64,000 bases of DNA from Escherichia phage Ec_YwIITB1 (PQ356294.1), one strand, 5' to 3'. Shown: positions 28,179-32,910, counted from the first letter of the stretch. Numbers and translations: made by a program. Notes: generated from the sequence alone by a model not told the origin.

Positions 28179-28182
28179 CAAT

Positions 28183-28204
28183 GGGGACCGGTCCCCATAT
28201 TTTT
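28183..28204 (+). terminator. intrinsic terminator after gene 54
   Basis: GGGGACCGGTCCCC followed by T-run. Confidence 0.55.
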
Positions 28205-28493
28205 ATTTACGGAATGATATAAAAGCAGCAACTGAAGCGACTAAACTGTCTTCAATATAAACTTCAATTTTTACCGGAGCTTCTGACTCAAATTTACCTG
28301 TTACTACACCTTGAAAAATGCTTTCAGTCTGTTCTGGCTTTGAAAAATTTTCAGAAGGAAAAATTCCGAACTTTTTATCTGTTCCAAAAATTTTGATAAA
28401 TTCATCATAAACTGCTTCATTGAAAGCGTTATCAGCAGGAATAACGCCTTCAACTACAAGTTCTTGACCTAAAAAGCGTAAAGAAGATTTCAT
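28203..28493 (-). CDS. hypothetical early protein downstream of alt
   Basis: 96-aa ORF with GAGG RBS and sigma70-like promoter upstream. Confidence 0.65.
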   Translation of the reverse strand: MKSSLRFLGQELVVEGVIPADNAFNEAVYDEFIKIFGTDKKFGIFPSENFSKPEQTESIFQGVVTGKFESEAPVKIEVYIEDSLVASVAAFISFRK

Positions 28494-28501
28494 TTTGTGT
28501 T

Positions 28502-28554
28502 CCTCATGTTATGTCAGTAAGACTATTATAACACAGCACGAGGGACTTGTAAAC
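28502..28554 (-). promoter_or_regulatory. sigma70-like early promoter plus leader and RBS (cassette copy A)
   Basis: Reverse strand TTTACA, 17-nt spacer, TATAAT, then GAGG and ATG 28493; 50 of 53 nt identical to 44191-44243. Confidence 0.55.
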
Positions 28555-30611
28555 TACATCTTGAACTTTTTAGACATTCCGTTGATGTTAACCAAAGAAG
28601 CCAAGATTTGAGAAACTTCGTTTTCCTCTTCTTTTGATTCTTCTACAAGGAATTGATTAAACCCAGCCATTGGACGAACTTCACCAGTTTCCATTAGATG
28701 ATCGCCATCATATACCGATTCTTCTAATTGTTCAGAAGGAGGAACGATTGTGCCTTCAATTAGATACTTGTTATAAGCAGTTTCTTTCATCATGTACGTG
28801 CTCACTTTATTAATCTTCAGCAAAATTCCACGTGGTAGAATAACTTCAGCTTCTGATGGAAATCCTGATAAATGACCTGGAACGATAACTTTGATTCGCT
28901 CAGCCCCTTTAATTACCATACCTACGCTAGCTTCAGCATCTTCATTAGCATATGCAGAATGACTACCCATATGCATTAAATCTTCAGCATCAACAGAACC
29001 TTCTCCTTCACCAGAAAATACTGCGCCGGAATCATCTAGAGCCATATAGTTTTTACCATGCTCACCGAAGATATTTGGTTTAAGCGATGTTGATACGAAG
29101 TTCTTGAAATAGAACATTTTATTTTCAATATTATGGCGTAAAGTTTTAAAAGTAACTTCTTGTCCACGATAAAGCGTAATTCCCGGAGGAAGAACTGAAC
29201 CTTTGGCAAAGGCAGAATCCAGCGTCTCGATGTGTTTAATAGCTCGTTCCATATATTCTTCACGGGTAGAATCTGGTTTACCCAAGAGGAACGAGTTCAT
29301 TTCAACATATGAATCTGCACAATAATCTTCAATTACAACAGACTCAGCCTGAGTTAATCCTTTTGGAGTTACTTCAGTGCTTGCGTATTCATATGCCTGA
29401 GCAGCAGATTCATTAATCAATTTATAAATGCCATTCATGACAAATTGAATAATAGCTACCTTTTCGTCTGGCGTAGCTTTAGAACCTTTAACTAAATCAT
29501 TGATAATTTTCTTAATAACATCAAAGCTATTAGAAATATTAATGTCAGCGAGATCGCTCAAAATTTTATCGGTTTTATAATCAAAAAATTCTTTATTCTT
29601 TAAATATTCTTGAGAACCTTGATATGTTATATCGCTCTGCAGTCTGATAGACGGATCGCGTAAACGTGCATGGGCCAATGCAATATGATTTCGGAGGCTT
29701 TCTAGTTCATAATCGTTAGATTTAAAACGAGAAGCACTTCTCATACCACCGATAGCTCCTTTGCTGAAGTTGGAACCAATCTGAATAACGCCAGAGTTCA
29801 TTGGTCCTTCTGCTTTATATACCGGAACTTTAGATTCAAACTCTTGATATTTCTTGGCGGCGAAGCTATCGCCCTGAAGTGAAGCATCGACAGTAGAATA
29901 TTGAGCTTGCGCTGCCAATCGACGACTAATTTTAGTTTTCTGAATAACAGCTTGATCCGTGCGCTTATCATTTTCTAAAGCAATAGAAGCAGCAACAGCA
30001 ACAGCTTTAGGAACAGCATTACCTGTTTTAACATCTACATAAACATCACCAACCTTTGATTCAACTTTTGTGAATAACTCAGTTGAAATAGGAGGTACAC
30101 CTGGAATGTCTTCTAAATTGGCATTTTTACGGTAAACCATAATATATGCATACTTTTTATCATAATCCCAGATTTCCTTTAAAAGAACATATCGACCTGC
30201 TCCTTTAGTACGTACTAAACGGTCAGCAATAACTTGCATCTGACGAGCTGCGCCATTTGTTTTACTTTTTAGTACGCGGAATAGGCATGCATCAATTTTA
30301 TACTGTTTCATTGTTTGAAGAGCAGTATCAAAAACCGCATTAATGACACCAATTGGATTTCCACCCAAGTTTTTAAGTTTAACTAATGATAGTTTCTCAT
30401 TAACACCTATCATTACGATATGCATCATTTTATCGCCTGGCTTAACGTTTTTATTTGTATCACCGCCAGAGGTGTATGTACAAAATCTAAATCCAGGAAG
30501 CACACTTTCTTCGCCGGCTTGAATAGCAAAAATTTGAGGTATTTTATGCTTAGGATTTAAGTTAACAACCGGCGCCGAAGCGCCGTCAAATAATTCTGTA
30601 ATAAGTTCCAT
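28554..30611 (-). CDS. Alt-like ADP-ribosyltransferase, second paralog
   Basis: 685-aa ORF; N-terminal ~230 aa closely similar to the adjacent Alt; ART-like motifs YRGQ, FVSTSL, EAEVILPRG. Confidence 0.8.
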   Translation of the reverse strand: MELITELFDGASAPVVNLNPKHKIPQIFAIQAGEESVLPGFRFCTYTSGGDTNKNVKPGDKMMHIVMIGVNEKLSLVKLKNLGGNPIGVINAVFDTALQTMKQYKIDACLFRVLKSKTNGAARQMQVIADRLVRTKGAGRYVLLKEIWDYDKKYAYIMVYRKNANLEDIPGVPPISTELFTKVESKVGDVYVDVKTGNAVPKAVAVAASIALENDKRTDQAVIQKTKISRRLAAQAQYSTVDASLQGDSFAAKKYQEFESKVPVYKAEGPMNSGVIQIGSNFSKGAIGGMRSASRFKSNDYELESLRNHIALAHARLRDPSIRLQSDITYQGSQEYLKNKEFFDYKTDKILSDLADINISNSFDVIKKIINDLVKGSKATPDEKVAIIQFVMNGIYKLINESAAQAYEYASTEVTPKGLTQAESVVIEDYCADSYVEMNSFLLGKPDSTREEYMERAIKHIETLDSAFAKGSVLPPGITLYRGQEVTFKTLRHNIENKMFYFKNFVSTSLKPNIFGEHGKNYMALDDSGAVFSGEGEGSVDAEDLMHMGSHSAYANEDAEASVGMVIKGAERIKVIVPGHLSGFPSEAEVILPRGILLKINKVSTYMMKETAYNKYLIEGTIVPPSEQLEESVYDGDHLMETGEVRPMAGFNQFLVEESKEEENEVSQILASLVNINGMSKKFKM

Positions 30612-30614
30612 GAT

Positions 30615-32669
30615 TTATCCTTGAACGAACTTGTAAGGCATGTTTGTAATATCTATGCAAGACGCAATAATTCCAAGAGATGATTCTACTTTTTGTTTAA
30701 CATTTGATGAAACAAATGATGCAAAGTCAACTCTGTCTTCTATTTCAATATCATCTGTCATTGCAACTACTTCACCAGTTTCCATTAGACGATCACCGTC
30801 ATAAATTACTGATTCGGTGAGTTCTTCGGTAGTCATAACTTCAGCTTGAATAAGCTTGTTGTTAGTTTTAGCTGTTCCATCATTGTAAGATGCGTCGGTT
30901 ATTTTATTGACTTTGACCATCAATCCACGCGGCAAAATGACTTCCATTTCATTTGAAGGCGCTAAACTTCCACCTGGTAAAACAACGTTGACTTTATCAG
31001 CCCCAGTAATAACCCATCCAATTCCAACTAAATTATCGCTAGAATTAACAAGTCCTTCATCGTTTTTATCGATAGAAATGTTTAGACGCTTTTCGTCTGG
31101 TAAAACACCCACAGCTGAATCAGTCATCCAAGTACCAAAAATGTTTGGATATAATGATGTTGATACAAAATTTCTAAAATAAAAAACTCGATTTTTTACC
31201 AATGCTTCATATATTGAAGGAGCAGTCATGCTTTGAGCACGATAAACTGTAATGCCTTCTGGTATACGGTCACCATTTTCAAAGGCTGAATCTAAATTAT
31301 TTATCGCAGATTCAATTTCTTTTTCACTCATTACCTCATATCGTTCTGGATTATATAATCCCAAAAGAGCATTATTCATGTCTACATATCCTGAACCTAC
31401 GTATTCACGAATTCCGCGTTTTTGTGCCGGTGTGTATTTAGATGAATCTTTATTTTCGACTATAGAATGCAATGACCATCCAACGGTAAGAGCATATCCA
31501 CGTAATTCTCTTCGAATAATCTTTGTTTTTATTGCATTCCAAGAATTTTGCACTAACTCATTCGCAGCATCTTGATTTAAATGCGAATGCTTGTTAATAT
31601 TTCTTTCTAACCAAGCACCTTTATATTTTTCTAAAGTATCATCAACTATAGAAGCAATAGTTTCTAAAGTTTTTATTGAAGTAATAGATTCTTTTCGTAA
31701 TCTTTCTAAAGCTTTATTTTTTATTTCTGCATTAACATCAGATTCTTTATCTTCAGGAATTATAGAAGCTTCTCTGAATGCCATTCCAGCTGTAACACTA
31801 TTAAGAGCATTCTCTAATGCAAATCCTGAAGTAGAAATAACAGTTAATTCGTTAGCATCAGAAATTAAAGGCGCGTCAGCGGGTTTATTTAATTCTGCTG
31901 CTGAAGCCTCAAATTTTTGAAACATTGGTGTTTCAAATCTAGAAGATTCTAATGATTGACTTTGTGCAATTGCTCTACGGGAAATTTTAACTTTAACGAT
32001 TACAGCTTGGTCAGAACGTTTATCGTTTTCTTGCGCAATAGATGCAGCAATGGCCTCATTTTTAGTTACTTGAGCTCCGGTATCTTTATTGATATAAACA
32101 TCGCCGACTTTCGATTCAACTTTAGTAAAGAGCTCTGTACTAATTTCAGGAACTCCTGGAATGTCTTCTAATGATACATTTTTGCGATGTATAAGAATAT
32201 ATGCATACTTTTTATCGTAATCCCAGAGTTCCTTAAGAAGGACGTATCTGCCACCTGAACGACTACGGATAAGTCTATCAGCAATAAGTTGAATTTGACG
32301 AGCTTGACCAGCAGTTTTAGACTTAAGAATACGGAGCATGCAGGCATCAATTTTATACTGACGCATCGTTTGCATTGCAACAGTAAAAACTGAATTGATA
32401 TAATTAATTGGGCTTGGACCGAGACCTTTTAATTTAGCGATTGAACCTTTAGCAGTTAATGTAAAAGGAACAATATGCATCATTTTATCGCCCATCTTTA
32501 AATCGCGATTAGTATCACCTCCAGATGTGTAGGTACATAAACGAAAACCTGGTTGTTCAATTGCGTCATCAACATGAACTGAAAAAATTTGCGGTATTTT
32601 CTTCTTTGGATTTAAGTTTGTAATCGGAAGAGTAGTATCTTCGTCAAATAATTCTGTAATGAGTTCCAT
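30615..32669 (-). CDS. alt: Alt ADP-ribosyltransferase (virion-packaged)
   Basis: ORF open from 32672 (MMELITE); second ATG 32669 better spaced from GAGGA; motifs YRAQ, FVSTSL, EMEVILPRG; late promoter upstream. Confidence 0.85.
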   Translation of the reverse strand: MELITELFDEDTTLPITNLNPKKKIPQIFSVHVDDAIEQPGFRLCTYTSGGDTNRDLKMGDKMMHIVPFTLTAKGSIAKLKGLGPSPINYINSVFTVAMQTMRQYKIDACMLRILKSKTAGQARQIQLIADRLIRSRSGGRYVLLKELWDYDKKYAYILIHRKNVSLEDIPGVPEISTELFTKVESKVGDVYINKDTGAQVTKNEAIAASIAQENDKRSDQAVIVKVKISRRAIAQSQSLESSRFETPMFQKFEASAAELNKPADAPLISDANELTVISTSGFALENALNSVTAGMAFREASIIPEDKESDVNAEIKNKALERLRKESITSIKTLETIASIVDDTLEKYKGAWLERNINKHSHLNQDAANELVQNSWNAIKTKIIRRELRGYALTVGWSLHSIVENKDSSKYTPAQKRGIREYVGSGYVDMNNALLGLYNPERYEVMSEKEIESAINNLDSAFENGDRIPEGITVYRAQSMTAPSIYEALVKNRVFYFRNFVSTSLYPNIFGTWMTDSAVGVLPDEKRLNISIDKNDEGLVNSSDNLVGIGWVITGADKVNVVLPGGSLAPSNEMEVILPRGLMVKVNKITDASYNDGTAKTNNKLIQAEVMTTEELTESVIYDGDRLMETGEVVAMTDDIEIEDRVDFASFVSSNVKQKVESSLGIIASCIDITNMPYKFVQG

Positions 32670-32692
32670 CATATCCTCTCTAGTGTTTATTC

Positions 32693-32700
32693 TATTTATA
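32693..32700 (-). promoter_or_regulatory. late promoter for alt
   Basis: TATAAATA on reverse strand about 21 nt before the alt start. Confidence 0.55.
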
Positions 32701-32705
32701 AAATT

Positions 32706-32723
32706 AAAGGCCCGAAGGCCTTT
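32706..32723 (-). terminator. hairpin upstream of alt
   Basis: AAAGGCCCGAAGGCCTTT. Confidence 0.35.
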
Positions 32724-32910
32724 AATAATCTATTGGTAAGAGAGTACGATATATTTCAAACTTTGGACCTTTTTCATAGGTATCAAATGTTTCTGTGAAT
32801 TTATTATAAGCATATGCATCTATAAATTCAATCATAATTTGTGATACAGAAGTAGAAACATCTCCACCTTCTTTTTGAGCCACGACAATTGTTTCTAAAT
32901 AAGCTTTCAT
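32722..32910 (-). CDS. hypothetical protein
   Basis: 62-aa ORF overlapping ligase stop. Confidence 0.55.
   Translation of the reverse strand: MKAYLETIVVAQKEGGDVSTSVSQIMIEFIDAYAYNKFTETFDTYEKGPKFEIYRTLLPIDY

Follow-up and report, generated by a model that had tools for sequence, protein, structure and literature searches.

Phage T4 serves as the model for host takeover by ADP-ribosylation, and its enzymes Alt, ModA and ModB are usually taken as the full set. A 64,000-nt stretch of Escherichia phage Ec_YwIITB1 (PQ356294.1), a T4-like phage of the genus Tequatrovirus, was analysed here and is referred to as the window. On its minus strand two genes for Alt-type ADP-ribosyltransferases lie in tandem, which raises the question of what the second of them is and what it may do for the phage. 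In the following, copy 1 denotes the upstream gene (alt, 30615–32669) and copy 2, or 'alt2', the downstream gene (28554–30611). We propose that copy 2 probably encodes a second arginine ADP-ribosyltransferase that is made late, processed by gp21, packaged in the capsid and injected, and whose targets differ from those of Alt. The purifying selection on the gene, the presence of both cleavage motifs, the apparent late operon and the private central domain of the protein are all in line with a second packaged effector that has a different target.

The local gene order is that of T4, with genes 29, 48 and 54 on the plus strand and alt.-3, copy 2, copy 1, alt.1 and the DNA ligase gene 30 on the minus strand. 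The 4.9-kb stretch round the alt pair is 97.5% identical to Shigella phage KNP5 and has matches in 511 phage records. A list of open reading frames (ORFs) gave two adjoining ones on the minus strand, 28554–30611 (685 aa, beginning MELITELFDGAS) and 30615–32672 (685 aa, beginning MMELITELFD). In the second of these the ORF tool starts one codon upstream of the ATG that is annotated in T4. The ATGATG at this start is also present in T4, and the ribosome-binding site suits the second ATG better, giving a copy 1 of 684 aa at 30615–32669, the same coordinates as in an earlier appraisal of this DNA made from the sequence alone (the sequence-only reading). Only 3 nt separate the stop codon of copy 1 from the ATG of copy 2.

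The sequence-only reading had described the region 28554–32672 as two tandem Alt-type paralogs, and the homology searches agree with this. The two proteins are 42% identical over their full length in a BLASTP comparison, and the E-value of 1e-158 places their likeness far beyond chance. Both match PF03496 (ADPrib_exo_Tox) well above its gathering cutoff of 23.4 bits, copy 1 with 122.1 bits and copy 2 with 74.8 bits, and both match phrog_802, a family of Alt-like transferases, where copy 2 reaches E = 3e-254 over residues 1–685. The domain pair PF26846 and PF03496 is precomputed on all copy 2 orthologs, and no NCBIfam model matched copy 1 or copy 2. With 94% amino-acid identity, copy 1 is the ortholog of T4 Alt, which the sequence-only reading had stated as a resemblance. 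Copy 2 is 41% identical to T4 Alt from end to end (E = 5e-162).

The identity between the paralogs is unevenly spread. It is 68% over the N-terminal residues 1–238, falls to 12% in the central region (residues ~240–415), and is 36% in the ADP-ribosyltransferase (ART) region and 44% in the C-terminal tail. An insert that follows the Ser-Thr-Ser motif is only 10–21% identical. The closely similar N-terminal ~230 residues and the divergent centre that had been noticed beforehand are thus both recovered by alignment.

On alignment, copy 1 and copy 2 follow a common five-part plan, consisting of a 6-residue propeptide ending in ITE, a basic alpha/beta domain of ~230 residues, a helical centre, the ART domain and an acidic C-terminal propeptide. 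In copy 2, codons 1–6 (30594–30611) encode MELITE, a predicted N-terminal propeptide that is identical to that of T4 Alt and would be cut after ITE-6. Residues 7–238 (29898–30593) form the basic alpha/beta domain common with Alt, presumed to be the capsid-core or delivery module. The paralog-specific, all-helical centre follows at residues 239–415 (29367–29897) and is a candidate substrate-recognition module. The ART domain occupies residues 416–631 (28719–29366), and the predicted acidic C-terminal propeptide (pI 4.6), which lies after the L-E-E631 motif, is encoded together with the stop codon at 28554–28718 (residues 632–685).

The catalytic residues of copy 2 are R482 (29166–29168), S507-T-S509 (29085–29093) and E587-A-E589 (28845–28853), all encoded on the minus strand, and those of copy 1 are R477, S503-T-S505 and E574-x-E576. 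Among ADP-ribosyltransferases of this class, an E-x-E motif typically marks the enzymes specific for arginine. All motifs that had been quoted from the sequence alone (YRAQ/YRGQ, FVSTSL and EMEVILPRG/EAEVILPRG) are present, and the careful alignment that the sequence-only reading had asked for finds the catalytic residues intact in both copies. Furthermore, Arg482, Ser507, Ser509, Glu587 and Glu589 (numbered as in copy 2) do not vary among 19 aligned, diverse members of the family, and they are likewise constant across Tequatrovirus, Dhakavirus, Mosigvirus, Gelderlandvirus, Jiaodavirus, Krischvirus and Lazarusvirus. A T4 Alt mutant named E577A has been reported in which ADP-ribosylation is abolished (PMC11404850). 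This residue would be the second Glu of the E-x-E motif if the published numbering counts from the upstream ATG.

An AlphaFold2 model of copy 2 (mean pLDDT 74.8) has an alpha/beta N-terminus, an all-helical centre and a mixed ART domain, and its tail is disordered from residue 629 on. The pLDDT is about 80–92 in the central domain, mostly 57–91 in the ART region and below 50 in residues 629–685. When the model was compared with the PDB using Foldseek, the top 50 matches were all transferases of the C3/VIP2 type, among them Vis, Certhrax, C3bot, CDTa, iota Ia and VIP2, with E-values from 6e-8 to 1e-5. A search with the copy 2 sequence against all PDB chains gave no match at E ≤ 0.01, so no solved structure of a close relative is detectable from the sequence.

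In T4, Alt belongs to the prohead core, where it is present in about 40 copies, and is injected together with the DNA (PMC9958956); it has also been described as a head core protein (PMC11404850). Mass spectrometry has shown that the prohead protease gp21 cleaves it at ITE-6 and LTE-619, leaving a mature protein of 68.2 kDa (PMC5694885; PMC9026906). Cut at the same two sites, copy 1 would be reduced to residues 7–619, with a calculated mass of 68.2 kDa that equals the published one. Copy 2 has I4-T5-E6 and L629-E630-E631 at the positions aligned to the cleavage sites of T4 Alt, and its predicted mature form comprises residues 7–631 (69.1 kDa). The ITE-6 motif is conserved in all homologs compared, and 11 of the 11 full-length homologs compared carry [L/I]xE at the C-terminal cleavage position. 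The 54-residue tail of copy 2 beyond L-E-E631 is acidic and overlaps the disordered part of the model. The N-terminal domain that the two proteins have in common is basic in each (pI 9.5–9.7). The conservation of these features argues that copy 2 would take the same route into the capsid as Alt.

A T4-type late promoter, with an exact TATAAATA motif, is located on the minus strand at 32693–32700, 23 nt upstream of the alt ATG. It had been picked out in the sequence-only reading, it is the sole such promoter upstream of both alt genes, and the arrangement upstream of alt is the same in T4. Motifs of the TATAAATA type are found 19 times in the window, where 8.2 are expected. A terminator-like hairpin, AAAGGCC-TTCG-GGCCTTT (32706–32723, minus strand), directly follows the stop codon of alt.1 and divides this gene from the alt operon. 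It is identical in T4 and was not flagged by a consensus terminator scan. Copy 2 has its own AAGGA ribosome-binding site, and no separate late promoter with at most one mismatch was found for it in the 490 nt upstream, that is, in the 3' end of alt. Because there is a single late promoter, a gap of only 3 nt and no internal late-like motif, alt and copy 2 look like one late operon.

The sequence-only reading had left it unclear whether T4 carries both genes. It does not. Between alt and alt.-3, T4 has no full-length second gene and only the short ORFs alt.-1 and alt.-2, which its annotation traces to an old duplication of the initial part of alt. Compared with copy 2, the T4 DNA is 95–97% identical over the first ~350 nt, the last ~20 nt and the flanks, and 1,699 bp in between are absent. 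The ends of this deletion are marked by a 9-bp direct repeat, CTAAAAAGT, the upstream copy of which (30264–30272, copy 2 codons 114–116) lies at its left end and the downstream copy (28565–28573, codons 680–682) at its right end, both on the minus strand. The repeat occurs exactly twice in the region, and one copy is kept in T4. The deletion removed codons ~116–681 out of frame, and an extra 1-nt indel divides the rest into alt.-1 and alt.-2. Furthermore, the PHROG families of alt.-1 and alt.-2 match copy 2 with 138 and 131 bits, as against 78 and 70 bits for copy 1. Given the 1,699-bp deletion between CTAAAAAGT repeats and the better PHROG match to copy 2, the comparison identifies alt.-1 and alt.-2 as the deletion remnant of a once full-length paralog and not as a partial duplication. 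What T4 retains of the second gene is thus deleted and frameshifted.

Full coverage of a probe centred on the junction left by the deletion in T4 was seen in 91 of 486 Tequatrovirus records, including T4 strains, RB55, RB59 and many natural isolates. Copy 2 seems to have been lost once, and the deletion to have spread afterwards. In a translated search, copy 2 matched 402 phage records at 80% identity or more, phage T2 among them, and 396 at 95% or more. Judged from these records, an intact copy 2 is the majority state, carried by about 400 of the roughly 490 Tequatrovirus records, or about four fifths of the genus.

Many of the records annotate 'Alt-like RNA polymerase ADP-ribosyltransferase' twice, a 2026 paper remarks on the Alt paralog pair, and paralogous duplications beside alt, including a full-length one in phage 44RR, were listed by Nolan et al. 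2006 (PMC1524935). As an object the gene pair is therefore already known, being annotated in hundreds of genomes and noted in print, and the sequence-only reading had overrated its novelty.

Copy 2 is under strong purifying selection. In pairwise comparisons among six phages its dN/dS is 0.03–0.11 at dS 0.08–0.23, and the 685-codon ORF is uninterrupted in the window phage, T2, phiD1, HP3, Sfk20 and teqdroes. Shigella phage sb4 (locus L003) was left out of the selection analysis because in this record each of four genes (alt, copy 2, ligase and gene 48) is broken up into several short coding sequences, and such fragmentation across the locus suggests a sequencing or assembly error. A 14,051-bp metagenomic contig of an uncultured phage (P0009, P0017) encodes a variant of copy 2 that is 74–75% identical to that of the window, together with a diverged copy 1 (63% in the ART domain). 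Diversity within the copy 2 lineage is therefore greater than would be judged from the isolates in the collection.

The same layout of alt.1, two long transferase genes, alt.-3 and gene 54 is found in the Dhakavirus phage dhabil. Between copy 2 and the downstream paralog of Dhakavirus, identity is 55% in the ART domain and 41–42% in the centre. In a tree of the ART domain and tail, copy 2 groups with the Dhakavirus downstream gene (100% bootstrap), and copy 1 with the Dhakavirus upstream gene (63–83% identity) and the single Alt of Mosigvirus and Gelderlandvirus (94% bootstrap). Since this part of the proteins groups by paralog, the two effector types predate the split of these genera. In a tree of the N-terminal domain, copy 2 of Tequatrovirus instead joins the lineage of the co-resident copy 1 (98% bootstrap), and the two Dhakavirus paralogs form a group with Mosigvirus (100%). 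Comparison of the trees thus gives the N-terminal and effector modules different evolutionary histories, and we suppose that either the N-terminal halves were homogenised within genomes or the effector halves were swapped between genomes. Recent gene conversion was considered as the source of the N-terminal likeness and ruled out, with a dS of 1.25 and a longest identical run of 21 nt. From the dS between the two N-terminal halves, the homogenisation or module exchange would be ancient.

The effector half of alt itself also varies within Tequatrovirus. Its alleles are of a T4-type (682–684 aa) or a T2-type (697 aa), which are 99–100% identical over residues 1–238 and only 11–35% identical in the centre (dN about 0.2). 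The T2-type was seen in T2 (L002, 904–2997) and in loci L004, L006 and L007, the T4-type in the window, T4 (L001) and HP3 (L005). The nearest relative of the T2-type allele is the upstream paralog of Dhakavirus, with 83% identity in the ART domain. Because of this divergence, findings on the targets of T4 Alt may not hold for Alt of the T2-type. Copy 1 of the window is a mosaic that is mostly of the T4-type, with a ERYEVMSEKEIESAINNLDSAFENGDRIPEGITVYRAQSMT stretch (residues ~445–510) and a C-terminal tail (~625–684) that match the T2-type, which points to recombination between alt alleles. In Escherichia phage JEP6 (L009, 1501–3983) an alt allele of the T2-type (2,094 bp) occurs beside a copy 2 remnant with the deletion seen in T4, a combination from which it follows that the deletion allele and the alt alleles have been reshuffled by recombination.

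The course of events that we favour would begin with the late synthesis of Alt and copy 2 from the one TATAAATA promoter that they share. Both proteins would then enter the prohead core by means of the shared N-terminal module and the propeptides, as their homology to T4 Alt suggests. There gp21 would trim Alt to about 68 kDa and copy 2 to 69 kDa at the motifs described above, and both would be ejected with the DNA into the next host. With the catalytic site and fold that they have, each would be expected to mono-ADP-ribosylate arginine using NAD+. Alt would modify RNA polymerase alpha and other proteins, as in T4, and copy 2 presumably a different protein set, selected by its paralog-specific centre and the loops round its active site. 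One microhomology-mediated deletion would account for the loss of copy 2 from T4 and about a fifth of the genus.

More tentatively, and with somewhat less than even confidence, we propose a wider interpretation. Copy 2 would be a capsid-delivered arginine ADP-ribosyltransferase with targets unlike those of Alt, maybe a component of defence or translation, that has been kept since before the split of Tequatrovirus and Dhakavirus and was missed for sixty years of work on T4 only through the 1.7-kb deletion in that phage. The Alt proteins would then consist of a genome-matched delivery domain joined to interchangeable effector halves, with at least three effector types in the genus.

Some points weigh against a packaged effector with targets of its own. 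Alt and copy 2 may share targets such as RNA polymerase alpha. About 19% of the Tequatrovirus isolates, T4 included, are without copy 2, which is therefore dispensable on common laboratory hosts, and the structure model of copy 2 was built on a shallow alignment of 19 sequences. In the literature on virion proteomics we found no virion proteome that reports copy 2, and the literature on copy 2 itself contained annotation-level remarks (PMC1524935; PMC13600099) and no proteomic or biochemical data that we could find.

Copy 2 might be a redundant packaged Alt that acts on the same targets, RNA polymerase alpha Arg265 and other Alt substrates, as a matter of dose or backup. The common architecture, the arginine-type E-x-E motif, the operon and the propeptide motifs would all be accounted for in this way, and the viability of T4 and the 91 related records that are without the gene is what would be expected if it were redundant. 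Dosage alone, however, does not predict the long retention of two strongly diverged copies, and these have been distinct lineages since before the Tequatrovirus/Dhakavirus split, as seen from the paralog grouping at 100% and 94% bootstrap. Copy 2 is also more tightly constrained than copy 1 (dN/dS of copy 2 0.03–0.11), and identity between the two is only 12% in the centre and 10–21% in the insert after Ser-Thr-Ser. We regard redundancy as rather unlikely. If copy 2 were instead an active transferase that is not delivered by the virion, it could have a late role in the producing cell or a mainly structural one in the prohead core. A late promoter is the only one evident, so the protein would in any case appear late in the producing cell. 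In addition, the packaging of copy 2 is deduced from its sequence, and Alt, too, has been called a head core protein (PMC11404850). We nevertheless consider such a role unlikely, as the propeptide and domain at the N-terminus and the cleavage motif near the C-terminus, which in Alt are tied to core entry and gp21 processing, are all retained in copy 2, whereas the non-packaged ModA and ModB of T4 are short and consist of the ART domain only (PMC5512222).

It is very improbable that copy 2 is a decaying duplicate without a function of its own, a pseudogene in the making as in T4. The T4 annotation as a relic of an old partial duplication and the loss of the gene in about 19% of the records would be in line with such decay. 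The ORF of 685 codons is, however, intact in every complete locus examined, with dN/dS of 0.03–0.11; about 396 records encode a protein that is at least 95% identical; the catalytic residues are invariant; and an ortholog has been kept in another genus. The remnant in T4 arose from a full-length gene by deletion, not the reverse. On the grounds of dN/dS and conservation the pseudogene reading was ruled out, and a second packaged transferase with its own targets is the explanation that we retain.

The genes on either side of the pair were inspected as well. Downstream of copy 2 is alt.-3 (28203–28493, minus strand), which encodes 96 aa with a DUF5498 domain (PF17602, E = 1e-64). It is near-invariant between phages (dN/dS < 0.07) and has its own near-consensus promoter of the early type. 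This sigma-70/T4-early-type promoter, TTTACA-17-TG-TATAAT (28525–28553, minus strand), lies between the copy 2 stop codon and alt.-3, matches the consensus in 11 of 12 positions, has an extended -10 TG and is the best promoter-like site in the region. In T4, mutants with a C-terminal extension of alt.-3 evade the CmdTAC defence (PMC11618068). Between alt.-3 (minus) and the convergent gene 54 (plus), the scan found a hairpin on both strands at 28181–28198, likely a bidirectional terminator, with a perfect 7-bp stem (ATGGGGAC CGGT CCCCAT) and T-rich runs on either side. Upstream of the pair, alt.1 (32722–32910, minus strand) lies between the ligase gene and alt and encodes 62 aa that match the Pfam family PF24647, 'Phage blade protein' (E = 5e-29). 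There is a 4-nt overlap with the ligase stop at one end of the gene, and past its other end lie the hairpin and then the alt late promoter.

About four fifths of the genus to which T4 belongs, T2 included, encode a fourth transferase, a strongly conserved Alt-type enzyme, which T4 itself has deleted. Should copy 2 enter the cell with the phage DNA and act on targets of its own, more would happen at the very start of a T-even infection than the picture drawn from T4 suggests. The database note on alt.-1 and alt.-2 of T4 can be corrected, as these are the deletion remnant of a full-length gene. Since the gene pair was already annotated and in print, the value of this analysis is that of a functional lead and not of a discovery.

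Among the closest known systems is T4 Alt (gpAlt, NP_049811), a capsid-packaged NAD+:arginine ADP-ribosyltransferase and the ortholog of copy 1. Copy 2 is like it in overall length, in ITE-6, in the N-terminal domain (68%), in the R/S-T-S/E-x-E residues, in the [L/I]xE site, in a conserved YDGDxLMETGE segment, in genomic position and in belonging to what appears to be a late operon. It is unlike T4 Alt in that the overall identity is only 41–42% and that the central 180 residues (12%) and the insert after S-T-S are unrelated in sequence. The effector half of copy 2 belongs to a separate lineage that is common only to the Dhakavirus downstream paralog. With alt.-1 and alt.-2 (NP_049810, NP_049809) the relation is that of one and the same gene, whole in the window and a split remnant in T4.

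T4 ModA and ModB are short, early, non-packaged proteins encoded elsewhere in the genome and lack the Alt N-terminal domain and propeptides. Copy 2, unlike them, has the full Alt architecture. NAD-capped RNA also serves ModB as a substrate. Like Alt, ModA and ModB belong to the R-S-E (Alt/VIP2) clade and are arginine-specific mono-ADP-ribosyltransferases for host takeover (PMC5512222). The function of Alt has been documented only for the T4 protein (PMC9958956; PMC5512222).

Tandem Alt paralogs are also found in other T4-related phages, namely in Dhakavirus (dhabil/JS10), in 44RR (ORF187c/188c) and in RB49, where ORF183c is the counterpart of a short transferase of phage JSE. The Dhakavirus downstream gene is the ortholog of copy 2, whereas the N-terminal domains instead resemble those of the co-resident copy 1. 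In Krischvirus JSE the gene downstream of alt (L014, 4853–5677) encodes a 274-aa, ART-only transferase with YRGQ, FVSTS and ECEV and without N-terminal domain or tail, which by its sequence is a different outcome of alt duplication.

The C3-like and binary-toxin transferases also bear comparison. The ART model of copy 2 superimposes on C3bot, Vis, Certhrax, CDTa, iota Ia and VIP2 (target TM-score up to 0.63), and copy 2 carries the same R / S-T-S / E-x-E signature. The toxins differ in being only 12–21% identical, in being secreted bacterial proteins that act on eukaryotic proteins, and in having no phage-capsid delivery module.

A parallel in design is offered by the internal proteins of the T-even phages, in which a conserved N-terminal targeting element, removed by gp21, is placed on diverse injected effectors (PMC3012670; PMC9026906), as it appears to be in the Alt pair. 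Their effector bodies vary between T-even phages, like the effector halves of Alt. Unlike Alt, the internal proteins are small (8–20 kDa), have a targeting peptide of 10 residues and are not enzymes of the Alt family, whereas the Alt proteins have a shared domain of 230 residues and a second, C-terminal propeptide. The Alt design may be described, by analogy, as a constant delivery half and a variable effector half, resembling the internal proteins with their capsid-targeting peptide (PMC3012670). The combination of a delivery domain with an exchangeable effector is likewise reminiscent of polymorphic toxins, as an analogy of design and not as homology to them.

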